Source: a virus. Taken from it: 12,140 bases of DNA. The notes below the pieces were generated by a model. It made no database searches. It was not told the origin of the DNA and was given only the letters and a program-made list of their open reading frames with translations. Positions 1-12,140 of this stretch are shown piece by piece. The stretch is taken from UHGV virus genome UHGV-1568604; one strand, given 5' to 3'. The position numbers were made by a program, and so were the translations under genes. Every line of letters starts with the position of its first letter. The first letter of the stretch is position 1.

Positions 1-110
1 GCACGTTAAATCATATCAGGCGTAATACCACAACCCTTAAGTTAGCGCTTATGGGAGAGATCCCCGCCACTCTTCGTGTGTCAGGTATCCTCAATGCACC
101 CTTTCCTCTC

Positions 111-137
111 CAAATAAAAAAGCTCCCGAAGGGGCTT
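111..137 (-). terminator. Putative rho-independent terminator after the 169-aa gene
   Basis: Minus-strand read gives AAAGCCCC-UUCG-GGAGCUUU (imperfect stem, one mismatch or bulge) followed by a U-run (UUUUUUAUUUGG), placed 20 nt after the stop at 158. Confidence 0.5.
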
Positions 138-157
138 TAAAATACAAGGGATGACTC

Positions 158-667
158 TTAATCCCACTCAATCCAGTTGTAGACGATACGAAGTGACGGG
201 CGCACAGCGGCAGTCACATCTTCGGTACTAAAGTCGATTGCATCACTGTAGATTTTGCAGTCCAACATTTCAATTGTTGTAGCAGCTTTTGTCACAGCGT
301 TAACCCCGGAAGATTTGGATTCAGGGGTAGCAGCCATCGTGATATCAACATAGTCCTTCGCCGCAATGCGATCCTTAATGAACTGAAGAATATCGCCTTC
401 GATAGTCTCCACGCACTGGACCTGGATTTCCCCAGAGTTTCGAATTGGTCCGTGCTGGTTGAACTTCACACCATTCGGACCATAGTCCTCCACATTCTCT
501 CGAGTCATTTCAGGGATTTGCGACGTGCGAACCAGTACGCTGATATCTTCATGGCCTGCAAAAGTGAGCTGGAATTCAGAAGATACCAGTCGTTCGCCTT
601 TGACCGCGTTGGCAGTATAGCGGCCCTTAATAAATTTACGGTTTCCCTTAGTGTTATTGTGCCCCAT
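158..667 (-). CDS. Small phage tail protein, tail-tube or baseplate tube-initiator-like (169 aa)
   Basis: Intact ORF with AAAAGGA 6 nt upstream of ATG 667, tightly packed behind the preceding gene. Size and C-terminus (..LRIVYNWIEWD) recall T4 gp19-type tube-fold proteins. Family assignment is from recall, not a search. Confidence 0.6.
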   Translation of the reverse strand: MGHNNTKGNRKFIKGRYTANAVKGERLVSSEFQLTFAGHEDISVLVRTSQIPEMTRENVEDYGPNGVKFNQHGPIRNSGEIQVQCVETIEGDILQFIKDRIAAKDYVDITMAATPESKSSGVNAVTKAATTIEMLDCKIYSDAIDFSTEDVTAAVRPSLRIVYNWIEWD

Positions 668-678
668 ATAAAATCCTT

Positions 679-1260
679 TTACTGGAACGCCCGAACAATA
701 TCGGAGCTGTTATATATCGAAGAACCGGTCAACTGGAGGTTGACGGTGTTTTTCAGGAAATATCCATTACTGTCCCTTGGCGCATCGAGATCAAAACTTA
801 AGTCCTGGATGGCGACATCGGTGATGTTGATCCGGCGACCAATGTTTAGCGTCACGCGCTCCGGGATTCGACCACCAACATTGGCCGCTTTTAGTTCCGG
901 GCTAATCATGGCTGTCAACGCGGCGATAGCGCCTGAAACTTCAATGAATGGATTGTTCAAAGCAATGAAAGTTACAGGCAGCGTGAACGTCGGCGGTGTT
1001 CCCCCTTCCCAAACCATTAAGCTGTTCCAACGGGTCACCGACGTTGTTTCAGTACCAACCTGCGCAAAACCACTGAAAGCACCAGCAACAGACCCCATGG
1101 ACATACCGGTAAACGGCGCTTCCCAATTCTGGGCCATGTTCATTGCTGCCCCCTGGCTGATATATCCGGTAACCTGATACTGAGAGTTCGTTAAAGTAAC
1201 TTTCAGATATGGCGATACACCGTCAGCCTGGCTGTAAACCCCATAAGCTATAGGAGCCAT
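679..1260 (-). CDS. Phage structural or morphogenesis protein (193 aa), function unknown
   Basis: Intact ORF in the same co-oriented late-gene string. Its stop is 11 nt before the next gene start. Gly/Ser/Thr-rich with no transmembrane segment. Confidence 0.6.
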   Translation of the reverse strand: MAPIAYGVYSQADGVSPYLKVTLTNSQYQVTGYISQGAAMNMAQNWEAPFTGMSMGSVAGAFSGFAQVGTETTSVTRWNSLMVWEGGTPPTFTLPVTFIALNNPFIEVSGAIAALTAMISPELKAANVGGRIPERVTLNIGRRINITDVAIQDLSFDLDAPRDSNGYFLKNTVNLQLTGSSIYNSSDIVRAFQ

Positions 1261-1270
1261 TCAAGTTAAA

Positions 1271-1288
1271 GGCCGGAGTTCTCCGGCC
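1271..1288 (-). promoter_or_regulatory. Perfect 8-bp-stem hairpin between the Shine-Dalgarno sequence and the start codon of the 193-aa gene
   Basis: Minus-strand read: TAA-AGGAGGA-GGCCGGAG-AA-CTCCGGCC-TTTAACTTGA-ATG. The SD is about 29 nt from the ATG in linear sequence and only comes into range if the hairpin forms. Confidence 0.35.
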
Positions 1289-1295
1289 TCCTCCT

Positions 1296-2111
1296 TTAGC
1301 CAAGGCGCTTACGGCGCAGTTTCATTGACTTTTTGCGGGCAAGTTTTGCCGCGCCGGTCTGGGCTTTTCGACGCGCTTTTTTCAGCGCCGATTTTTGAGC
1401 CGCAGTCAGACGTTTTTTACGCAGGCGTTTACGGATGAGTTTGATCTCACCGTTACGAACAACCTTCTTAAATGATTCAGTCAGCATTTCATCAGAAGTG
1501 CCAGCAACAACAAACGCCGCTTCCAGTTCGTCGCGGTCGTCGCTATCTAAACCAGCGATAGAGGCACCAACATCAGCAGCTGCGTCGTCGTCTTCATCGT
1601 CAGCCAGTGCTTCGATCAGGTCATCATCTACACCGCATGCTGCGAGGAAGTCAGCAACATTTGCCCATGCTTCGTTATAGGCATCGTCCTGTTCTTCTGT
1701 AACTTCGGAGTCGTCGTCATCAGAGATACCAGCGATAGCCTGAACGAAACCATCAAGGGAGTCGAAAGTCAGATCACCGCTATCAGCCCAGGCGAAAACG
1801 GCGTCGGCCGCATCACTCAACGCATTCTGCATAGCACTTCGATTTGCAGCTTCCAGAATCATCTGGTGCGCCTGTTCGACGGTCCATTCTTTACCGTCTT
1901 TCCCTTCCAGGATTTGCTCAGGAGCCGTGGCAGATGGAGCGTTATCGTTAGTCTGTGCCGCCGGTTCCGGATTATTATTAATAACCGGATCTGTTGTCGG
2001 TTCGGCGCTTGCTCGGGCAGACTCCATCAACTGCACAGGATCAGAGTTCAAAGCGAAACGAGACAGTCCATTCCCCAAAAATGCCCCGGATTGAAAAAAG
2101 TTTTTGCTCAT
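1296..2111 (-). CDS. Phage protein with an acidic core and a poly-basic C-terminal tail (271 aa)
   Basis: AGGAA precedes ATG 2111 and overlaps the sheath stop. The middle third is D/E-rich (DDDDSEVTEEQDD, ADDEDDDAAAD) and the last ~55 residues are K/R-rich (KRLRKKRL, RRKRLG). It sits directly downstream of the sheath gene. Confidence 0.7.
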   Translation of the reverse strand: MSKNFFQSGAFLGNGLSRFALNSDPVQLMESARASAEPTTDPVINNNPEPAAQTNDNAPSATAPEQILEGKDGKEWTVEQAHQMILEAANRSAMQNALSDAADAVFAWADSGDLTFDSLDGFVQAIAGISDDDDSEVTEEQDDAYNEAWANVADFLAACGVDDDLIEALADDEDDDAAADVGASIAGLDSDDRDELEAAFVVAGTSDEMLTESFKKVVRNGEIKLIRKRLRKKRLTAAQKSALKKARRKAQTGAAKLARKKSMKLRRKRLG

Positions 2112-2120
2112 TGTATTTCC

Positions 2121-3710
2121 TTACTTAATAAGCAGCGGTACGCCCTGGATACGACGGGCTACGCCAGTCGGGCAGCAGGCCCAGACTACTTCCCATTTAT
2201 CGAATTCCGCCTGCGTAACTTTCAGCACATACGGTTCTGTACCGTCAGCATCAGGATCACGAGGAGCCACCAGAGCGCCGGAGGCGACAAAGCGATCCAA
2301 AAGTTTGGTCATCCCTTTAGTCAGGCCAGACTCAGTAATGCCGTCCGGGTTATGCTTCATCTGTCGGGCTAACTGGACAAAGAAACGGCTGATTGCGTTC
2401 ATCAGGGATGGGACGTGCTGGAAATGCAGATAGTTGTCCTGCGTGCAGCAAGTTAAAGCATCATCGATGATCATCTGGCCCGAAGTACCTACAGATACTT
2501 TATTGAGTCGGCCCTTGACCATAGCTTCTTCGTCCGGGGTGTCTTCAGGATACAGCGGCTGAAGTGATGCACGAGCAATGACGGCACGTTCTTCACCAGC
2601 CGGTGAGTAATGCCAACCGCCGACATCGGAGTTTTTCTTGACGCCACGAGCTATCGCCGCATACGCCGCGCCAGACAGACCGAAGATCACGCGGGATTGG
2701 GTCCATTTGTCTTTGCAGGAGAACGGGAAATGATAGACAGCACAGCTTACATAATCGGTACCAAGTAAACCGGTATCTTCAACAGCAGAGATCGCTTCCG
2801 TGTACGTCAATGTCGGTTTGACATCAAAGAAGCCATCAATCAGGCGATCAGAACAGATATTACCTAACGCAGTGATCGCCGCATTGTCATAGCAACCCAG
2901 GCCGAGAACAGCGGTGTACATGTACGGCGCATTGTTCAGCACTTTCACCGCACGCAGGTAAGCAGCAGTGGAAATGTTCGACTGATCGCCGTTGGTACCG
3001 CCAGTGAACGCCAGCGATTTTTTATTTGTTACTTTCGCCGTCGAAATCAGCTCTTCATTAACAACCGCGCGCAGATATTTAGAACGGGCTTCCAGAGCCG
3101 TAGGCAGATAACACAAGCGGCCCATGTCATCTTTCGCTTCTTCCGCCAAAGACACAGTGTGTGTCTCCAGGGTCGTTACCACACCGAGCGAAGTCGTCTG
3201 GGTCAGTTTTAAGAGGAAGCGTTCATTACCCGCGCTGTCCGCTGTTGCCGTTTCGATGGTTAACTCACGGGTAGGAGAAATACACGGATCACCATCATCA
3301 ACGTAGATAGCAAAGGCTTCGCCGCTATCAAGTTCAATTTCAGAACCGTATGGCAACGCACTGTAAGCCGGTTCGCCTGATTCATCGAACATAATAATCG
3401 GGAACTTCGCATCATCCGGAACAGCACGGACAACATAACCAGACGTTTGCTGAATAGCTTCGTACACATGGCGAATTGGTTCGAACTGTGAGCCGGAGGA
3501 CGGCTTCAGCGGTTCGCCGAGAACATCTTCGTAATTGGACTCAGTAACCGCAAGAACAGTAAACGGCTTGCCACGCGCAAATACGCCAATACCAGCCCAC
3601 AAGCTGCTATTTAATACAACACCGGTAGATAACGTCGCATCGGCATTGATCGGGCTAACAGCGACACCGGATGCATTACCTAATGACTGTTGAATTGAAT
3701 ATTGAGACAT
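2121..3710 (-). CDS. Contractile tail sheath protein (529 aa)
   Basis: Intact 529-aa ORF with AGGGAAAG before ATG 3710. Size and C-terminal region resemble myovirus sheath proteins, and it follows the capsid gene in a late operon. Likely equivalent to P1 gene 22, by recall only. Confidence 0.8.
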   Translation of the reverse strand: MSQYSIQQSLGNASGVAVSPINADATLSTGVVLNSSLWAGIGVFARGKPFTVLAVTESNYEDVLGEPLKPSSGSQFEPIRHVYEAIQQTSGYVVRAVPDDAKFPIIMFDESGEPAYSALPYGSEIELDSGEAFAIYVDDGDPCISPTRELTIETATADSAGNERFLLKLTQTTSLGVVTTLETHTVSLAEEAKDDMGRLCYLPTALEARSKYLRAVVNEELISTAKVTNKKSLAFTGGTNGDQSNISTAAYLRAVKVLNNAPYMYTAVLGLGCYDNAAITALGNICSDRLIDGFFDVKPTLTYTEAISAVEDTGLLGTDYVSCAVYHFPFSCKDKWTQSRVIFGLSGAAYAAIARGVKKNSDVGGWHYSPAGEERAVIARASLQPLYPEDTPDEEAMVKGRLNKVSVGTSGQMIIDDALTCCTQDNYLHFQHVPSLMNAISRFFVQLARQMKHNPDGITESGLTKGMTKLLDRFVASGALVAPRDPDADGTEPYVLKVTQAEFDKWEVVWACCPTGVARRIQGVPLLIK

Positions 3711-3725
3711 AACTTTCCCTGTTAT

Positions 3726-3743
3726 GCGCCCCGCACGGGGCGC
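3726..3743 (-). other. GC-rich hairpin in the capsid-sheath intergenic spacer
   Basis: GCGCCCC-GCAC-GGGGCGC (7-bp all-GC stem) between the capsid stop (3770) and sheath start (3710), with no U-tract after it on the minus strand. Confidence 0.35.
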
Positions 3744-3769
3744 TATGTTAAACGGAGAACTTCCCCTGA

Positions 3770-4951
3770 TTACTCAGAGTCACCGGCATCAATCGTGTCG
3801 CCGCTTATAAAGTTAAGCCCGCCTTTTTTGGCCATTGTCAGCGTTACACGAGTGAAGTAATCAGCGCCGTTGCGTGGGTGCATATCGTTGATAGCCGAAC
3901 CCCACAGCGTGGTACGGTTGACCAGCGCCGGAGTGGTCGGATGCTGGAACGGGATGGCCGGGACAGCATCACCAGTCACGAAGCCTGCTTTACCCGGATT
4001 TTCATCACGGACGTAGCACAGCACATCCATCGAGCTGAACTGAATGTTCTCTGTCGTTAAGTTCTTACAAATACCAGCAGGTACTTCGTACACTTTCACG
4101 TTACCGAACAGGGTACCGATGTAGTGAACATACGGAGTCTGGATATAGTCTTCGGCTGACTGGAAGAAATCCTTCGGCAACTGTTTGAAGAAAGATGCTG
4201 CATCAGCACCAGCAAACATCCCCATCGCACCAGAAGATTTAACGCGCTCAATAATGTCGCGATATACAGTCTGGAATTTGCCACGAATGATGGTTGCCCA
4301 TACATCAAAGGACTGGTTAACCGGCAGAGCGATGTCAAAGGTGTCGGTCGCAAGAGTACGCCAGATCATGATGCGAAGACGCAGCATATCCTGTTCATGA
4401 GACAGGTATTCCTTCAGGGTGCGGAACTGTAGGGAACCCAGGTCCAGACCAAATTCACGCTGTGCTTCATACGCCGCCTGTACCGTGTGCTCAGCCGCGA
4501 TAACGAACTGACTTGGGAACAGGGTGTATTTCTTCATTTCGTGGTTGATCAGCGGGATCAGCTCAGGAGCGGCTTCAATATTGATTTCCGTCTCAATTGC
4601 GATCTCAGTGCCTTTATCCGGCGCTTTGGAGAACGACAGGGCAATCTGACCAATGTTGTAGTTCAGAGAGCAGGTAACAGTGATTTGCTCACCAGCAGCA
4701 TTAGTAAACGAGTGAAGTAGGCTGCCGGAACCGTTATCAACAACAGACTTAATACGGTTAACGTAGATGTTAGTGCGACCTTTTCGGATTGGTACATTCT
4801 GGCCTTCGAAGTCTTCCATCTTGAAGGTTGCGGTTTTGCTGGTGCCATCGGAGCTTGCCAGCAGCATAAGAACCAAAAGATGAACCTGCCACGTTAAAGA
4901 CTTCATAGATGTCGGACTGGTCACGCGTAACCGGAATGAAGGTACACGCAT
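3770..4951 (-). CDS. Major capsid protein precursor, C-terminal part (frameshifted relative to the N-terminal part)
   Basis: Long ORF whose protein-like translation begins around ASSDGTSKTATFKMEDFEG (about 4858 downward). The first ~30 codons after the nominal ATG 4951 are out-of-frame read-through with no SD. Together with 4770..5411 it spans 1642 nt (3n+1). Confidence 0.7.
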   Translation of the reverse strand: MRVPSFRLRVTSPTSMKSLTWQVHLLVLMLLASSDGTSKTATFKMEDFEGQNVPIRKGRTNIYVNRIKSVVDNGSGSLLHSFTNAAGEQITVTCSLNYNIGQIALSFSKAPDKGTEIAIETEINIEAAPELIPLINHEMKKYTLFPSQFVIAAEHTVQAAYEAQREFGLDLGSLQFRTLKEYLSHEQDMLRLRIMIWRTLATDTFDIALPVNQSFDVWATIIRGKFQTVYRDIIERVKSSGAMGMFAGADAASFFKQLPKDFFQSAEDYIQTPYVHYIGTLFGNVKVYEVPAGICKNLTTENIQFSSMDVLCYVRDENPGKAGFVTGDAVPAIPFQHPTTPALVNRTTLWGSAINDMHPRNGADYFTRVTLTMAKKGGLNFISGDTIDAGDSE

Positions 4952-5411
4952 CAGCGGTAGCTGCCCCCAACTGAACAGGCAGGATCATCGCGAGGAATAA
5001 AGGCAGACGCATAACACCGTCAGAAACGCTCATCATCTCTGCTGCGACGGATTCCAGCATCGCTTTATTAGTGGCATCCATGCTATTGCGGGTGGACTCA
5101 ATCAGGCAGTTTTCCAGCGTCTGGTGGCAGGAGGCCAGAATTTCCGGACGCGGCATAGATTTATGTGCTGCGGCGTAGTCAGCCAGTGCACTTGCCCACG
5201 CTGTAGCGATTTGAGCGGTGGCATTATCAGAGATACCCGCAAAAACCGGGTCTTTACGTGCAGCTTCAAGGATAGATGCGGCACGCGCGGCATCATCTTT
5301 AATGAATTGGTTATCAGTACCGAACTGCGCAGTGCTTGCCCAGCCAAGCACAGCTTTAGAGCGTTTTGCGATATCTGCAATACGATTCTGGTATTCGCGT
5401 AAGTTACTCAA
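4770..5411 (-). CDS. Major capsid protein precursor, N-terminal part with delta/scaffold-like domain (frameshifted)
   Basis: AGGAAG sits 6 nt upstream of TTG 5411, giving MSNLREYQNRIADIAK...; the ORF track's TTG 5432 start would translate through that SD. Ala-rich helical N-terminus resembles a capsid delta domain. The frame stays protein-like to about ..GSSFGSYAAG (near 4857), then becomes R-rich junk until the stop at 4770. Confidence 0.65.
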   Translation of the reverse strand: MSNLREYQNRIADIAKRSKAVLGWASTAQFGTDNQFIKDDAARAASILEAARKDPVFAGISDNATAQIATAWASALADYAAAHKSMPRPEILASCHQTLENCLIESTRNSMDATNKAMLESVAAEMMSVSDGVMRLPLFLAMILPVQLGAATADACTFIPVTRDQSDIYEVFNVAGSSFGSYAAGKLRWHQQNRNLQDGRLRRPECTNPKRSH

Positions 5412-5426
5412 TTTACTCTTCCTTAA

Positions 5427-5491
5427 ACACAAGGCACTTGTGTGAATCCCTTTTCGGAAGAGATTTTATTGAAAGTCACTTGTTGACTTTC
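5427..5491 (-). promoter_or_regulatory. Candidate late promoter/operator upstream of the capsid gene
   Basis: Perfect inverted repeat GAAAGTCA-cttgt-TGACTTTC at 5471-5491 and a second one ACACAAG-gca-CTTGTGT at 5427-5443, the latter 4 nt upstream of the capsid SD. An A/T homopolymer tract lies at 5505-5519. Confidence 0.3.
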
Positions 5492-5544
5492 TCGTGACAA
5501 GCAATTTTTTTATTTTTTTCGGGAGTAGGGGAGGAAGGTAAAAT

Positions 5545-5635
5545 CCAAGGTGAAATCGTGGCGATTTCACCTTGAAATTTTAGAGGGATTTACTTTAAAA
5601 ACAGTAGGTTAATAGTGAAATTTGAATGGCGAAAG
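5545..5635. other. parS: parS partition site (P1-type box A heptamers and box B hexamers flanking an AT-rich IHF-like core)
   Basis: Box A-like heptamers (ATTTCAC/ATTTCAA) at 5550-5556, 5564-5570, 5572-5578 and 5615-5621. Box B (TCGCCA, seen as TGGCGA) at 5559-5564 and 5627-5632. AT-rich core about 5580-5612. Immediately downstream of parB. Motif identity is from recall of the P1 system. Confidence 0.75.
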
Positions 5636-5636
5636 T

Positions 5637-6638
5637 TTAAGGCTTCGGCTTTTTATCGAGGCTCTTTCTAAGGATATGCCCAATCATCCTGTCGAGTTCT
5701 TCCTGTAGCTCTTTTGAAAGTCGATTAAACTCATAAGAAAATGCACGGCCTTTCACGCGCTTCCTTGCAAAGCGATCCTTGTCCTCAAATTTCCATAATT
5801 CAGTAACTACGGACTTATCTTTAGAACCTTTATCCGTGAGTAGTGAGGCTTCCTTTGTTATCAAGCGCAGGATTTTATTTTTAACTTCATCTTCGGCCAT
5901 TTCTTCAATGGATAAGATGTCGTTTATTTCCGGGGATATGTTTTGAATAAGCTGATCAAACTCTAAATTCTTGTTCCCCATTTCGTCGCCAACAGCACAA
6001 AGCGTTTTGTAGTCCGAAAAGGTTAATTCCGACTGCACAGGGAAAAGGGCGACTAATTCTTCCGGAGCACTCGCTGCCTGGAGAGCACGCGTGACCTTCG
6101 CCTGAGACAGCCCTTCTTTGGCTGCAATATCCTTCTGACTCATCCCATCATTTTTCATTCGCATCAAACGCAGACCTATTTCTCGAATGCTGTGCTGCAA
6201 TGCTGTCTGAACGTCTTTCGCTAAATTTTGCGCTTCCTGAACGCTGATCTCCTGGTCCGTGACTAAAACCCGCAACCCTACGTTCTCTAAGATGGCAGAA
6301 GCTCGACGCCGGGAACCATCCAAAATTTCAATTTTCCCTGTAGCCCGTCTAACACCTATTGCAGGGTAAAATTGCTGATGCTTAATAGTGCTTCGGATAC
6401 TTTTTAATGATTTTGGCGTAAGAGATGTCTGGTCACGCCCGTTGTTATGCTGATCAACAAAGGTATCGCTTTCTACCTGGTTCGGAGGTATTACCTCTTC
6501 AATAAATGTGGCCTGGCGACCAGTTGATAACTTGAATACCTGCTCGACTCGATCGCCAGAGGCTGAAGAACTATCAAATCCGCTTAATATTGAAGGATTA
6601 AGGGTTCGCCCAATTGTTGGTCTGTTTTTCTTTGACAT
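5637..6638 (-). CDS. parB: Partition protein ParB (centromere-binding, 333 aa)
   Basis: 333-aa ORF directly downstream of parA with parS after its stop. Sequence is recognised as P1-type ParB from memory and includes a helix-turn-helix-like segment (MSQKDIAAKEGLSQAKVTRAL). Confidence 0.93.
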   Translation of the reverse strand: MSKKNRPTIGRTLNPSILSGFDSSSASGDRVEQVFKLSTGRQATFIEEVIPPNQVESDTFVDQHNNGRDQTSLTPKSLKSIRSTIKHQQFYPAIGVRRATGKIEILDGSRRRASAILENVGLRVLVTDQEISVQEAQNLAKDVQTALQHSIREIGLRLMRMKNDGMSQKDIAAKEGLSQAKVTRALQAASAPEELVALFPVQSELTFSDYKTLCAVGDEMGNKNLEFDQLIQNISPEINDILSIEEMAEDEVKNKILRLITKEASLLTDKGSKDKSVVTELWKFEDKDRFARKRVKGRAFSYEFNRLSKELQEELDRMIGHILRKSLDKKPKP

Positions 6639-6654
6639 GGGGGTTTCTTACTCC

Positions 6655-7851
6655 TCAGTTAGATCTGATAAATTCAATACGGTCAAAAACTGCTTTAGCA
6701 AAATCTTCCGCAGCAATTCGCGCGTTCTTCAATGCATCAGCACTACCAACATACGTTGCCGGGTTAGCTGAAATAACAGTGTCAAAAGACTCGCCGCAGC
6801 GTTCAAAACCGTCAAGGCGAGGGAGGACAACATCAAGCATATCCCCACCGAACACTTCTTTAGCCAGGCTATGGCAATACTTATGGTCTGCCTTGTTACT
6901 CAACTTGGACATAAAACCAATGTTAGTTGCAAGCTGACACTCGCAGCCTTCATCCGAAATGAGTTTCACCAACTCAGGAAGGCGGGCAACGTATTTAAGC
7001 GATGAGTGGAAATCAACCGTTGCAGGCGGCAGAGGTGTAAACAGTATATTGGCCGAGGCCAAAGCATTTTTCAGGAAGGCGTCAAGGTGAGGACCACTAT
7101 CAACGAGGATAAAGTCATAATCGCTCTTCAGCTTATCAATCACATTTTCTTTCAGGACTGCATGGATGTTCTGACCCGGTAGATGCTCATTGCACAGCTC
7201 TCTCCAATCGGATGCAATAAAGGCATCGTCAATCGACGCAGGCATAACGTCAACCCCAGGTACAACAGAAGGAACAATAAACTCCTCTAACAGCTCTTCA
7301 CGGCTTACATTCTGCAACATAGCCTGTGCAGATGTTGCGTTTACGATACCAATAGAGTGTTTATGGCTTAAAAACATCGTTGCTGAAGATTGCGGATCAA
7401 GGTCAATAACCAGAATCCTTAAATCTTCCATCAGAAGATGAGGATGAGCACGCATTGCATGCGCCAGAGAAACCGTCGATACAGTTTTTGACACACCGCC
7501 TTTAAGATTGGAGATGAAAATCACATACGCTTCGCTGTAGCGATCCCGGTATTTTGGCACTCCGCGATGTTCATATATGTCAATGATGTTCTGAATTGAC
7601 ATCGCATATTTCATTGAAGAGCCAGCAGGGCGTTTATCGAAAACATAACCCTTTTCTTCCATTTCACTTACGGCATAGTCAACGTTCGCACGAGTCAGTA
7701 GAGGCAATTTTGCCAGTGCCGCTTTCGCATAGACCTGGTAAAACTCGTTCGCGTGTAGCTCATCCTTTTGCAACTGTACTTGTTCAGTCAGAACATTGAG
7801 CATTCTATTTGCTCTTTGAGCAACCTTGTGAAGCTGGCTGGAATCACTCAT
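6655..7851 (-). CDS. parA: Partition ATPase ParA (type Ia, 398 aa)
   Basis: Deviant Walker A motif (NLKGGVSKT), Walker-type ATPase architecture and a long N-terminal regulatory extension typical of type Ia ParA. Recognised as P1-type ParA from memory. AAGGA precedes ATG 7851. Confidence 0.95.
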   Translation of the reverse strand: MSDSSQLHKVAQRANRMLNVLTEQVQLQKDELHANEFYQVYAKAALAKLPLLTRANVDYAVSEMEEKGYVFDKRPAGSSMKYAMSIQNIIDIYEHRGVPKYRDRYSEAYVIFISNLKGGVSKTVSTVSLAHAMRAHPHLLMEDLRILVIDLDPQSSATMFLSHKHSIGIVNATSAQAMLQNVSREELLEEFIVPSVVPGVDVMPASIDDAFIASDWRELCNEHLPGQNIHAVLKENVIDKLKSDYDFILVDSGPHLDAFLKNALASANILFTPLPPATVDFHSSLKYVARLPELVKLISDEGCECQLATNIGFMSKLSNKADHKYCHSLAKEVFGGDMLDVVLPRLDGFERCGESFDTVISANPATYVGSADALKNARIAAEDFAKAVFDRIEFIRSN

Positions 7852-7985
7852 CGAAAGCCATCCTTTATGCTGTATTTTTGAATTTAATTAAAAATGCTGC
7901 ATAAAATAATAATGTATGCGTAGATGCTTGTACATAGCATTCTCTGCATGTTTGGTTCATTTTGCACGATTGAGAGTTACAAGGA
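7852..7985 (-). promoter_or_regulatory. par operon promoter/operator region
   Basis: AT-rich ~130-bp leader upstream of parA with near-palindromic elements (ATGCTTGTACATAGCAT, TTTAATTAAA). Type Ia ParA proteins autoregulate at such operators (established knowledge); exact promoter not mapped. Confidence 0.4.
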
Positions 7986-7991
7986 GGGCAC

Positions 7992-8012
7992 AAAAAAGCC
8001 CCGTTCAGGGGC
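7992..8012 (-). terminator. Rho-independent terminator after the 269-aa gene
   Basis: Minus-strand read GCCCC-UGAAC-GGGGC followed by UUUUUUG, beginning 8 nt after the stop codon at 8020-8022. It insulates the par promoter from upstream transcription. Confidence 0.7.
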
Positions 8013-8019
8013 ATCAGTG

Positions 8020-8829
8020 TTATTTGCTAAGAGCAGCGAATAATCGTTCGAAATCGATAGTATCTATAGCACGCGTAAGCGCCGGAAGTTCAGCCTCAAA
8101 GTACCCGTGTCGATCGTAAAAGAAGGGACCGAAGAGCGAGGCATGTTGGATTCTACTTCGCCCCAGCCCGGACACACAGTTAAGCCCATTACCGGCTAAA
8201 AGGCTAAAAAACTTCTCTGGATTATCGTGGTAAAGCTGGGAATCAATGGTGGCGGTTAACTCTTCCATAGGGAAGCACACCCGCCCTGTATCCCAGGGAT
8301 ATTTAGTCCGAAGCATAAACATTGCTTTCAGCAATTCACATTGAGCGCGGATCGCGTCCGGTTCATAGCCAGATATGGAGACATAAGCCACGTCCCTCAT
8401 TCCTGCGTCATCTTTGAAAGTCACGATAGAAGTAACATCCAGCTCTTTTTCGAAAGAGCAAGCAGCATCTACTGGACGCTGAAGTAAATCATTCGACTTA
8501 ATGCGCTCGAGAATCCCTCCCCACATATCATTTAGATATTCGATATGAGCCAAAACCTTATCAAGACACTCTCGTGTAAACCATTCAGTATGCCCGCCAC
8601 CGACGCTTTTCTCCCACGGCGCATTCCAGGGGAAAAAGGTTGCGTGTAAAGCCCGCTCAAGATTAACCATTGCCAAACGCGTACCACGATAGACCCGTGA
8701 AAGCGCAAAATCGGGACTCACTTGTAGCCCTTTAAACCGTGCCAATGGACCACATGAAATGCCGATTTTAAAAGTATCTCCGTTCTCTGGCACCAGAACG
8801 TAGAGGTAGTGTTGTTTCTCTTCTTGCAT
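8020..8829 (-). CDS. T5orf172/GIY-YIG-like nuclease-domain protein with an uncharacterised C-terminal domain (269 aa)
   Basis: N-terminal ~110 aa carry the T5orf172/GIY-YIG-like pattern (YLYVLV..., FKIGIS, LERALHATF, TEWF). C-terminal ~150 aa have no feature I recognise. Single gene with its own terminator, between the iteron field and the par promoter. Confidence 0.75.
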   Translation of the reverse strand: MQEEKQHYLYVLVPENGDTFKIGISCGPLARFKGLQVSPDFALSRVYRGTRLAMVNLERALHATFFPWNAPWEKSVGGGHTEWFTRECLDKVLAHIEYLNDMWGGILERIKSNDLLQRPVDAACSFEKELDVTSIVTFKDDAGMRDVAYVSISGYEPDAIRAQCELLKAMFMLRTKYPWDTGRVCFPMEELTATIDSQLYHDNPEKFFSLLAGNGLNCVSGLGRSRIQHASLFGPFFYDRHGYFEAELPALTRAIDTIDFERLFAALSK

Positions 8830-8863
8830 ATCAATACCACTGCTTGATGAGAACCGCGCAAAT

Positions 8864-9119
8864 GTTGACTATGCGCGAAGGTTAATGTGAATAGTTGACT
8901 ATGCGCGATGTGACTACAGTCAAAAGTTGACTGTAGTCGATTTAACTCCACCAAAGATCGACTATGTAAGATATTGTCGGGAGAAACGTTGACTATACGC
9001 GATGAAATGCCCCTAAAAGCCATCTCAATAGCGACTTGCAGAATATTGACGCCAGCAAAAATCCACCAGCGTCAACGAATGTCGCCTATAGTCAACTTCT
9101 CGCTATCGCATATAGTCAA
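8864..9119. repeat. Iteron field downstream of repA (incA-like copy-control locus)
   Basis: Direct copies of GTTGACTAT(G/A)CGCGA at 8864-8878, 8894-8908 and 8988-9002. Variants at 8926-8940 and 8957-8971. Inverted copies at 8910-8923, 9083-9097 and 9106-9119. Same core as the origin iterons. Confidence 0.8.
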
Positions 9120-9121
9120 TA

Positions 9122-10006
9122 TTATGGATTGCGCTTATGGATCTGGAAGCCGATTTTCCTGCCGTTTTTTATCTCTGAAAATTTAAGATATTCAATAGCT
9201 TCCAAATCTTTCATGGCTTTTCTGATAACGCTATTTTGCACGCTAACGGATGATTTGAGATTAAGCCTCGCTCTAAGGCGCTCAATGCTGACAGGTGCCG
9301 GGTTGGCGGGTAGAGCCTCAAAGAATGTATACAGTACCTTGGCCGTCTCTTTGCGCCCTAGTTTATCCAGCATCTTCAGCTTCAGGATTCGCTTATAGTC
9401 AACATAGTAAAGTTCAGATAGCTGTTTCTGCGGCTGGATCTCGATAACATCAAGCTCGGTATTCAGGCTGCTATATGCCAACAAGTTGACGTTAATGTTA
9501 TTGAGATGACCTTTTGCCGCCGGGAAGCGGAATTTGACAACTGTCTGCTGAATGCGTGTCAGAGAGTCATCAATACTTTTACGGAACGCCTTTGAAAGGC
9601 GCTTACGTGGATAGCCGCATCGATCGGCAAACTCGGAGAATGGCAGGGTGATTATGCCGTCATCATCAGGTGCGTAGTCAAACAACGCGGAGGTTATGCC
9701 CACCCACACCTTAAAATCAGTATCCATATCCAGGCGTGGACCATGAATTTCAATTCCCTCATAGCCTTCCTGCTCAACAATTTTGAGGCTTGATAGTTCT
9801 TCAGTTGCGTTCGTTGTGTTTGTTGTAACTGACGATCCGCGACGTAGCGCCACATTGGTAGATTTTAAGGTTGGCACAAACACACCTAAGCGCAACAAAG
9901 CGATGGGTTGTATAGTGCTGTTGTTATTGGGCTTCAGGCTGTGGATTTCTCCTGTATTTCCTGCAACTTCTTCAACGCTAAGGAAGCCTTTACTTTCTTC
10001 CGGCAT
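9122..10006 (-). CDS. repA: Iteron-binding replication initiator RepA (Rep_3 family, 294 aa from ATG 10006)
   Basis: Flanked by iteron arrays on both sides. Conserved initiator segments are present (QPIALLRLGVFVP, GPRLDMDTDFKVW). GGAGA lies 7 nt upstream of ATG 10006; the ORF track's TTG 10042 has no SD. Confidence 0.88.
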   Translation of the reverse strand: MPEESKGFLSVEEVAGNTGEIHSLKPNNNSTIQPIALLRLGVFVPTLKSTNVALRRGSSVTTNTTNATEELSSLKIVEQEGYEGIEIHGPRLDMDTDFKVWVGITSALFDYAPDDDGIITLPFSEFADRCGYPRKRLSKAFRKSIDDSLTRIQQTVVKFRFPAAKGHLNNINVNLLAYSSLNTELDVIEIQPQKQLSELYYVDYKRILKLKMLDKLGRKETAKVLYTFFEALPANPAPVSIERLRARLNLKSSVSVQNSVIRKAMKDLEAIEYLKFSEIKNGRKIGFQIHKRNP

Positions 10007-10087
10007 CACGGTTTCTCCATGTGTGGCGCGGCCTGACGTCAATTTGGATGGCTGTTATCAACAGCTGTGAATATTCAGACTCTAAAA

Positions 10088-10187
10088 TCGCTTACAGTCA
10101 ATGTTTCTGTCGCGTATAGTCAACAATAAATCGCGTGCAGTCAACAATAAATCGTGCACAGTCAACATAAAATCGCGTATAGTCAAT
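10088..10187. repeat. Origin iterons: five direct repeats with ~21.5-bp phasing
   Basis: TCGC(G/T)TRNAGTCAA(C) at 10088-10101, 10110-10124, 10131-10145, 10152-10166 and 10174-10187 (spacing 22/21/21/22 bp), immediately upstream of repA. An inverted repeat GCTGTT-atc-AACAGC at 10051-10065 contains the DnaA-box-like TTATCAACA. Confidence 0.85.
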
Positions 10188-10190
10188 GTT

Positions 10191-10298
10191 GATCCCATTT
10201 CAGGCCAGTAATGACGCGGCTTACAGCGATCCGGGATCTTCTTTGGATCTTCCTAGGTTCTCTTTAGGATCTGTTTATTGGATCTATGCTGTGGATAA
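10191..10298. other. Origin auxiliary region: GATC (Dam) cluster plus consensus DnaA box
   Basis: GATC at 10191, 10228, 10235, 10246, 10268 and 10281, four of them in GGATCT contexts. Perfect DnaA box TTATCCACA (seen as TGTGGATAA) at 10290-10298. Same architecture as P1-type oriR, by recall. Confidence 0.75.
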
Positions 10299-10299
10299 G

Positions 10300-10327
10300 T
10301 TGAATAAACCGGCCAACAAAGCCGGTT
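10300..10327 (-). terminator. Putative rho-independent terminator after the 130-aa gene
   Basis: Minus-strand read AACCGGC-UUUGUUG-GCCGGUU followed by UAUUCAACUU, about 15 nt after the stop at 10342, just before the origin. Confidence 0.55.
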
Positions 10328-10341
10328 GGAAGGAAGTCATA

Positions 10342-10734
10342 TTATTCTACGCTTTCGATAAGAAGACCATGTTCATAACATTTAAGCTCATCGCCTTCGT
10401 ACAGGAATTGGTATCCAATACCACCATTTTCATGGACATTAGGGAATAACTCATAACTCACTGAAGAGCAAATCACACCAATGCAGCGATCAACGCCTTC
10501 TCGTTCTTCAGTGCTGAAAAAATCCTCTTCGGTAAGGACATGAGTACATTGCTCATCAGCATAGGTCGGAAATACATGCTCGATGCAATCCGGGTGTTTT
10601 AAACCAAGCTGATCGGCAAGCTCGAAAGCATGACGGTATTGTTCAGATCCTGGCTTGCCAACAGTGATGTGCTCAATTTTGTAGATTGAAGTTGCTTTGT
10701 TGATAGTTTGCTTTACTGTTACTTTATCAGACAT
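10342..10734 (-). CDS. Hypothetical cytoplasmic protein (130 aa), Cys/His-containing
   Basis: AAGGGA lies 5 nt upstream of ATG 10734, which is 9 nt after the lipoprotein stop (translational coupling plausible). No transmembrane segment or signal peptide. Position matches where I recall P1 upfA (tentative). Confidence 0.65.
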   Translation of the reverse strand: MSDKVTVKQTINKATSIYKIEHITVGKPGSEQYRHAFELADQLGLKHPDCIEHVFPTYADEQCTHVLTEEDFFSTEEREGVDRCIGVICSSVSYELFPNVHENGGIGYQFLYEGDELKCYEHGLLIESVE

Positions 10735-10745
10735 AAAAATCCCTT

Positions 10746-11078
10746 TTAGTTACCTCTGATAGCGCGGTTGTAATCATTAACGTTGCGATTCTTCCTGTTA
10801 ATCCCCATCAGCATCGTTTCTGTATCGAGGATATACGCTGGCAGATCATCAAAATATTCACTGCTAAACTCTGGCATCCTGCACATAAATGCACTTTTGG
10901 GGGCAGGGTGGTTAACCTTTGTCGGCGTCGGCGTTAAATTCGCTGATCGACTGCCGGAGCAACCGCTGAGTGTCAGCAGGAATGCGCTGGCGAACATTAC
11001 CCGCCGCAACCAGTTGTTTCTGAACTTCAGCTTTTCGTTCCATTTGCCTGTCAGCATATTTGGCTTGTTCTGATTCAT
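10746..11078 (-). CDS. Lipoprotein, Rz1-like outer-membrane spanin candidate (110 aa)
   Basis: AGGAAG lies 6 nt upstream of ATG 11078. Lipobox LTLSGC, then a Pro/Thr-rich mature region (LTPTPTKVNHPAP). Its first 167 nt overlap the 3' end of the upstream gene in another frame. Could correspond to P1 mlp (tentative). Confidence 0.7.
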   Translation of the reverse strand: MNQNKPNMLTGKWNEKLKFRNNWLRRVMFASAFLLTLSGCSGSRSANLTPTPTKVNHPAPKSAFMCRMPEFSSEYFDDLPAYILDTETMLMGINRKNRNVNDYNRAIRGN

Positions 11079-11334
11079 TTTTCACTTCCTGGCTGTGAAA
11101 ATGTTGCTCTGCTTTGTTCATCGTCTCAATGGTCTGGTTAAGATCCATTATTGACTTATCACGTTCCTTAACAGCCTGATCAAGACTGCCAATTTTCTCC
11201 ATGGCTTGCTTTAGCTGATGACGTTCCCATGCAAACCCAGCACCAACAAGTGCGCAAATCAGAACAAGAACACCAGTAGCAGCAAGTTTCTCCTTCAAAG
11301 ACAAAGCTGTTTTTAACGTAGAAAAGAATGACAT
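10912..11334 (-). CDS. Rz-like inner-membrane spanin candidate (140 aa from ATG 11334)
   Basis: AGGAGG lies 5 nt upstream of ATG 11334 (MSFFSTLK...). One N-terminal transmembrane helix (LAATGVLVLICALVGAGFAW), then a charged helical region. C-terminal stretch (VAAGNVRQRIPADTQRLLRQS) resembles lambda Rz by recall. Could correspond to P1 ppfA (tentative). Confidence 0.72.
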   Translation of the reverse strand: MSFFSTLKTALSLKEKLAATGVLVLICALVGAGFAWERHQLKQAMEKIGSLDQAVKERDKSIMDLNQTIETMNKAEQHFHSQEVKNESEQAKYADRQMERKAEVQKQLVAAGNVRQRIPADTQRLLRQSISEFNADADKG

Positions 11335-11373
11335 GTCTTCCTCCTGAAGAAAAATTATCAATGAAGTCCTTTG

Positions 11374-11910
11374 TTACTGTGCCGCTTTGTTTAATTCATC
11401 AAGAACAGAATCAGGAACCAAAGCGGCAACTGCGCTGGCTGTGCTGACCTTATTTGCTGATGCTTCCGCAAGCGCGGTACCGATAGCATGGTTATAAGCA
11501 GTTATGGCTACGTTGGCGCTTTCATTCGCTCGTTCATACTGCTGTTGTAACGCAGTTGTGGGCGTTGTTGTCTGGTTGAAAACAACCCCAAACTGTTCAG
11601 TTGCTACTTTCAGAGATTCAATTTGCTCTTCTGTTAGTGCTGGTGGGGGAGTGGCAGTGCCGCCGCCTGAACCAGAGCCTGACGAGCTTCCTGAGCCAGT
11701 GTTAAGGGTCTGGTTAATCTCCCCCATAGCAGCGACTAAACTTGATGTATTAAGCGCGTTAACAGCGTCCTCAAGCGATTTAGTAATATTCACATCACCA
11801 ATGGCAATAGAGATCGGCAGTTCTGAAACTTCTCGCTCATTAGCACGGCAGTAAACATCCCAACCAATATCGAGTTGAAGCAGCATTGACAGATCTGCAT
11901 AACCAGCCAA
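11374..11910 (-). CDS. Hypothetical two-domain protein with a Gly/Ser-rich linker (178 aa); start uncertain
   Basis: ORF from TTG 11910 with only a weak SD. The frame stays open and protein-like for 29 more codons upstream to a TAA at 11998-12000, with no canonical start there. Central linker is GSGSSSGSGSGGGTATPPP. Confidence 0.5.
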   Translation of the reverse strand: MAGYADLSMLLQLDIGWDVYCRANEREVSELPISIAIGDVNITKSLEDAVNALNTSSLVAAMGEINQTLNTGSGSSSGSGSGGGTATPPPALTEEQIESLKVATEQFGVVFNQTTTPTTALQQQYERANESANVAITAYNHAIGTALAEASANKVSTASAVAALVPDSVLDELNKAAQ

Positions 11911-12140
11911 CAGGTCCGCGTGCTTAGTTGCCAGTTCTCCAATGTTCGTTAAGTCGGTTGTGGTTGTTCTTATCGTTGAAACGGTGATGCTGCCAACTTA
12001 CTGATTTAGTGTATGATGGTGTTTTTGAGGTTCTCCAGTGGCTTCTGTTTCTATCAGCTGTCCCTCCTGTTCAGCTACTGACGGGGTGGTGCGTAACGGC
12101 AAAAGCACTGCCGGACATCAGCGCTATCTCTGCTCTCACT

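Follow-up and report, generated by a model that had tools for sequence, protein, structure and literature searches.

A 65-nt deletion splits the major capsid gene 23 of a plasmid that probably descends from a P1-like phage

We analysed a 12,140-nt stretch of DNA, UHGV virus genome UHGV-1568604 (hereafter the window), and conclude with high confidence that its copy of gene 23, which in P1-like phage-plasmids encodes the major capsid protein, has been inactivated by a 65-nt deletion in a plasmid lineage that has decayed from a phage. In a direct alignment, P1 gene 23 spans 1707 nt versus 1642 nt here, and the 65 missing nt form a single gap. Apart from this gap, the span is 99.6% identical to P1 gene 23 (NC_005856 57067-58773, major capsid protein). 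Plasmid unnamed2 of E. coli CB6886 (97,572 bp; human, Germany) contains the whole window, letter for letter, at 84846-96985, and the RefSeq PGAP annotation calls the same span (plasmid record 88615-90256) "frameshifted". The features of the region are listed in Table 1.

Table 1. Features of the gene 23 region, in window coordinates
Feature	Position	Strand	Basis
Gene 23 (P1 major capsid protein), predicted pseudogene	3770..5411	-	1642 nt vs 1707 nt; P1 alignment
Translatable 213-aa stub	4770..5411	-	Translation; PHROG 1014 positions 3-186
Stranded C-terminal coding region, gp23 A207-E568	3770..4858	-	Translation; PHROG 1014 positions 208-567
Deletion junction, TGG microhomology common to both breakpoints	4858..4860	-	Breakpoint computation
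Gene 23 start region: TTG (5411-5409) and AAGGAAGAG Shine-Dalgarno (5424-5416)	5409..5424	-	Sequence
Late promoter LP23, retained	5463..5481	-	Mapped from P1 annotation 58825-58843 (window = P1 - 53362)

The ORF list contains two minus-strand ORFs, at 3770-4951 (393 aa) and 4770-5432 (220 aa), which lie in different frames and overlap by 182 nt (4770-4951), as the initial annotation of the window had described. Reading the sequence directly from the TTG start to the stop gave the 1642-nt span that had also been reported there. The upstream frame encodes native sequence to ..GSSFGSYAAG, the end point that had been recognized earlier, followed by KLRWHQQNRNLQDGRLRRPECTNPKRSH and a stop, and the downstream frame is protein-like from ASSDGTSKTATFK onward. 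The upstream half matches positions 3-186 of the PHROG 1014 profile (E 2e-65) and the downstream half matches positions 208-567 (E 4e-168), leaving about 21 profile positions absent between the two matches. Because both halves match one family, and both matches are far beyond chance, the ORF pair is one gene read in two frames and not a chance arrangement. The earlier identification of the gene as a P1-type major capsid gene is borne out by these matches and by the identity to P1 gene 23. A Pfam scan of gp23 and both halves, with a Pfam copy that lacks DUF8615 (the model that one RefSeq record names), returned no family.

The TTG start is the start given in the P1 annotation, and window 4858-7950, which takes in LP23, matches P1 58220-61312 without gaps. 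On the left side, the match to P1 stops at gene position 554; the right match starts 3 nt earlier, so the two breakpoints share the sequence TGG. In P1 gene coordinates, the missing stretch runs from position 552/555 to position 616/619, and the sequence across the junction is ...GCTGCTGG/CAAGCTCC.... The initial annotation had placed a lesion near 4851-4862 and had proposed one extra nucleotide, possibly in the AA dinucleotide at 4855-4856. The location was right to within about 2 nt, as the shared TGG at 4858-4860 falls inside that interval, but the lesion is a 65-nt deletion and not a gain of one nucleotide. Since losing 65 nt has the same effect on the frame as gaining one nucleotide, the 3n+1 arithmetic misled the earlier reader, and the case is a worked example of how a "3n+1" length need not mean a one-base insertion. 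Alignment to capsid homologues from P1-like phages, which the same annotation had recommended, is what defined the indel exactly.

In P1, an 8-nt direct repeat, TGCTGGTG, occurs at gene positions 549 and 611, with the copies 62 nt apart, and the P1 breakpoints lie within and beside this repeat. The homology at the junction is only 3 nt, and the loss is offset by 3 nt from the 62 nt expected of a perfect 8-nt repeat. We considered a 62-nt slip between the perfect repeats and rejected it, as 65 nt are gone and one TGG remains where TGGTGG would be expected. The deletion probably arose through replication slippage or through microhomology-mediated illegitimate recombination.

The deletion removes residues D186-V206 (21 codons) and 2 additional nt. 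Putting the 65 nt back yields an ORF of 568 codons whose product matches P1 gp23 except for P440S, which indicates that the lesion is probably a single event in an otherwise intact gene. This sole amino-acid difference from P1 gp23 results from C1318T (gene position 1318; window 4094, minus strand) and falls in the C-terminal region that is now out of frame. Residue 440 is Pro in phage phi456 as well, so the change may postdate the inactivation. Identity to P1 is mosaic, being 97.4% over window 116-4866 (bplB to the first part of gene 23) and 99.2% over window 4858-7950 (the junction through parA). The switch in the level of divergence may fall near the capsid gene and hints at earlier recombination among P1-like elements.

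Translation from the normal TTG would give gp23 residues 1-185, 28 out-of-frame residues and a stop, for a total of 213 aa. As mature P1 gp23 begins at Ser121 (SVAAEM) by Edman sequencing, with the first 120 residues forming a propeptide (PMC9024508), the stub consists of the 120-aa propeptide and 65 residues of the mature protein, followed by the out-of-frame tail. The maturation site, ..LE/SVAAEM.., is present in the stub as NKAMLESVAAEMM. The 362 C-terminal residues (A207-E568) are out of frame with the normal start and are not made from it. Structures of P1 gp23 have been solved (PDB 9ukm and 9vl4), and the residues named as capsomer contacts in a preprint on the P1 head structure, which fall between 297 and 563 (bioRxiv 10.1101/2025.11.26.689930), are all inside the stranded part. 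Reading the sequence for in-frame ATGs in the C-terminal part, we found one at 4951, which opens with 31 junk codons, and one at 4819, which is native M220; neither has a good Shine-Dalgarno sequence, in agreement with the earlier statement that the downstream part has no such start of its own. Gene callers begin a 349-aa ORF at M220. Since the sequence is homologous to P1 gp23 over its full length and the single uninterrupted ORF of ~568 codons is missing, we regard the gene, on sequence grounds, as a pseudogene of the gp23 family and not as a functional member.

Homologues of the gene have the 65 nt that are missing here. All 23 phage records match the gene in two pieces and have a span 65-66 nt longer than the query. 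The best-ranked matches of 751 PLSDB plasmids likewise all consist of two pieces with the extra 65 nt, and among the best-ranked of 756 E. coli records, which also match in two pieces, only the two CB6886 records match in one. The top-ranked matches, drawn from ~750 other P1-like records per collection, have 366 nt where the window has 301. The six phage genes that we examined in detail were either single 1707-nt ORFs or had the same 65- or 66-nt excess. According to the initial annotation, homologues naturally encoded as two ORFs with the same junction would argue against inactivation; there were none among the best-ranked of the ~750 other P1-like records per collection.

We asked what else of P1 the CB6886 plasmid retains. 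The plasmid covers 26.6% of P1 DNA. Using tblastn (E <= 1e-5) to search the whole plasmid with 44 P1 proteins, we found Cre, Phd, Doc, Lpa, PacA, ParA, ParB, a divergent RepA, gp22, gp21, PmgG, and BplB. In the same search, 25 of the 44 proteins were not found. These included two head-assembly partners of the capsid protein, the portal Prt and the prohead protease Pro; the endolysin Lyz, the holin LydA, DarA, and the tail fibre proteins S and R; gp16, the baseplate protein BplA, Sit, the tail tube protein Tub, PmgB/C, PmgS/T, and gp5/6/24/7/25/26; and RepL, Ban, and Dmt. In the PGAP table of the plasmid, darB and ref are truncated, and pacB is apparently truncated, with just a 351-nt "large terminase" ORF annotated. 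The plasmid thus lacks the complete set of virion, lysis, and lytic-replication genes of a functional Punavirus. As most of these genes are absent, the element has ceased to be a phage and is a plasmid with a P1-like phage-plasmid as its ancestor, and it is predicted to be incapable of making virions whatever the state of gene 23. The initial annotation had raised the decay of a phage-plasmid into a plasmid as one reading of the split gene, and the retention of ~27% of P1 together with the loss of portal, protease, lysis, tail, and lytic-replication genes strongly supports it.

The genes for maintenance are still present. The window contains repA with its iterons as well as parA, parB, and parS; c1, phd/doc, and cre map to other parts of the plasmid. 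The neighbours of gene 23 in the window, bplB, pmgG, 21, 22 (tail sheath), parB, and parA, are full length, with zero indels within the ORFs. The full-length reading frames of the tail genes 22, 21, pmgG, and bplB might suggest that these genes are being retained, but recent decay predicts the same equally well. The pmgG ORF (window 679-1260, minus strand) encodes 193 aa, of which 187 are identical to P1. At this site RefSeq has only a 79-aa protein and a 70-aa ORF on the opposite strand, and in L010, a near-identical relative described below, gene callers gave 154 aa; the short call is probably a start-site or annotation quirk.

The replicon (window 7950-10212) differs in type from that of the P1 reference. 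Its RepA, encoded on the minus strand at 9122-10006, shares only ~41% amino-acid identity with P1 RepA, parA and repA are separated by a minus-strand gene for a GIY-YIG nuclease (8020-8829), and iteron-like repeats with the core TATAGTCAA occur on both sides of repA (8859-9120 and 10083-10207). The module is 98-100% identical in phages phi456, RCS47, SJ46, and JL22. We therefore rejected a foreign origin for this part of the window, which is a common alternative P1-like replicon (phi456, RCS47, SJ46).

The plasmid also carries acquired cargo. The PGAP table lists many IS elements, Tn3-family transposons, tet(A)/tetR, and a polysaccharide and rhamnose biosynthesis cluster, as well as an autotransporter, a group II intron, and extra toxin-antitoxin pairs. 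This element thus combines the features of a P1-derived plasmid, with P1 maintenance genes kept, phage genes lost, and cargo gained. P1 ref is split by an insertion of ~30 kb (record 10111-41372, L004) that is bounded by fragments of Tn3-family transposases and holds an IS1-flanked polysaccharide/capsule cluster (rfbBDAC and several glycosyltransferases). The P1 remnant is itself bounded by insertion sequences: an IS1 from 11983 cuts upfB, and the end of an IS421 transposase gene lies 2 nt to the left of the window start. We considered the IS421 junction, together with window 1-400, as a marker of the degraded lineage and dropped it, since this junction is common to 171 E. coli genomes; it is a long-standing feature shared across a large P1-like sublineage and is not peculiar to the degraded plasmid.

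The deletion allele is present well beyond a single assembly. The 37-nt junction sequence was found in the metagenome contig OGDM01000468.1, which matches the window perfectly for 10.4 kb but has 43 differences in the last 1.6 kb, and is thus a different molecule. The exact 213-aa stub occurs on at least 37 contigs (NCBI, Logan, and ENA), and the intact P1 gp23 sequence on at least 1000. Six loci from different assemblies or SRA runs all contain the junction, with 99.6-100% identity to the window; one of these, a 73-kb contig, is a perfect match to the CB6886 plasmid but rearranged. The near-identical relative L010 was compared with CB6886 over 15 kb, and the degradation of the whole replicon is a finding for CB6886 only. 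In a one-genome-per-species contig collection, which contains few E. coli, the junction 37-mer had no matches. Carriers have 0 SNPs over 10.4 kb and no differences in gene 23. They form two haplotypes that are identical over window 2-10398 and have 43 differences (~2.7%) in 10399-11982, a region spanning upfA-mlp-ppfA-upfB (L008, L011, and L012). This divergent region looks like a recombination tract, and in the second haplotype the P1-like sequence is ~300 nt longer before the IS1 end. From these comparisons, we conclude that the deletion is real and is inherited within a plasmid lineage that is nearly clonal. The junction is also a convenient exact marker with which this plasmid lineage can be traced in public data.

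These data bear on other explanations for the split gene. One is that the gene is intact in the cell and that the 65 nt were lost in sequencing or assembly, a version of the sequencing indel that the initial annotation had listed. The deletion occurs in two complete-genome records, NZ_JBVDMN010000004.1 and NZ_OZ392450.1, which are of equal length and coordinates and derive from the same CB6886 isolate, so they are not independent. However, the junction recurs in independent assemblies, including the metagenome contig that differs elsewhere, and the truncated product is encoded on 37 contigs, some from unrelated SRA runs, which together exclude a sequencing error. In addition, the remaining coding regions of the window are full length without stray indels, and a loss of 65 nt is atypical of base-calling errors. 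We give the artefact essentially no weight. A second explanation, programmed +1 (or -2) ribosomal frameshifting, would fuse both ORFs into one capsid protein and would account for the 182-nt overlap of the frames and for a downstream part without its own start. This too can be set aside with near certainty, because homologues encode the protein in one frame and have 65 additional nt exactly at the junction, so that the two-frame arrangement is not conserved; because even a perfect fusion would be short of 21 residues of the mature capsid protein; and because the portal, protease, and tail that the product would need are missing from the plasmid. The +1 recoding that had been considered a less likely reading thus fails on the same comparison that defined the deletion.

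A further explanation accepts the deletion but gives the stub a use. If produced from LP23 at superinfection, a protein consisting of the propeptide and 65 residues could poison capsid assembly of an incoming P1-like phage and so act in defence. The start codon, the Shine-Dalgarno sequence, LP23, and the activator gene lpa are all kept, the allele is present in many samples, and the N-terminal 120 residues have been suggested as a possible scaffold (PMC9024508). Against this, no sign of selection was seen, the carriers are essentially identical over the region, and clonal inheritance of the plasmid explains the spread of the allele. Out-of-frame reading makes the 28-residue tail a random sequence, the plasmid already carries c1 immunity, and we found no experiment or precedent for this protein. 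We consider a useful stub very improbable, and rate as slighter still the chance that the stub has been kept in the lineage as an Lpa-switched dominant-negative capsid fragment that blocks head assembly of superinfecting P1-like phages.

Inactivation by deletion in a decaying plasmid also agrees with comparisons to known systems. Over the whole gene and its flanks, the sequence has 99.6-99.8% nucleotide identity to P1 gene 23 (NC_005856; the protein of PDB 9ukm and 9vl4) and to phi456 (OR339795). As in these phages, the gene has a TTG start and a late promoter, with parS/parB upstream and the tail sheath gene 22 downstream; unlike theirs, it has lost 65 nt, its ORF is broken, and it carries P440S. 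P1-like phage-plasmids have been described to turn into plasmids by gene loss, with resistance gained through IS elements (PMC10879196). Like the P1-derived plasmids of that study (Pfeifer and Rocha, 2024, PMC10879196), the CB6886 plasmid has kept P1-type replication, partition, and addiction genes, has lost most phage genes, and has acquired resistance and other cargo through IS elements and transposons (tet(A), Tn3-family, IS1, IS3, and IS66). Relaxase or oriT gain was reported in most, not all, P1-derived plasmids (Pfeifer and Rocha, 2024, PMC10879196); the PGAP table of the CB6886 plasmid, taken as annotation only, names no relaxase. The closely related set in that study kept at least 75% of conserved P1 gene families, whereas the CB6886 plasmid has ~27% of P1 DNA, and it is more eroded than most of the P1-derived plasmids described there. 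The element also resembles defective or cryptic prophages, in which a single indel breaks an unselected structural gene while flanking genes are intact. Unlike cryptic prophages, it is extrachromosomal, kept by its own replicon, par, and toxin-antitoxin genes, and not integrated.

Virion, lysis, and lytic-replication genes have mostly been lost to deletions and replacements associated with IS elements and transposons, and the capsid gene is probably a neutral relic decaying alongside the other phage genes. Gene 23 of this element is an ordinary pseudogene in a P1-derived plasmid; this kind of decay has already been documented, and the gene had already been flagged by RefSeq. The appropriate label for the element is P1-derived plasmid rather than inducible phage-plasmid, a distinction that bears on how phage-plasmids are counted and on predictions of whether cargo of the tet(A) type is spread by transduction.
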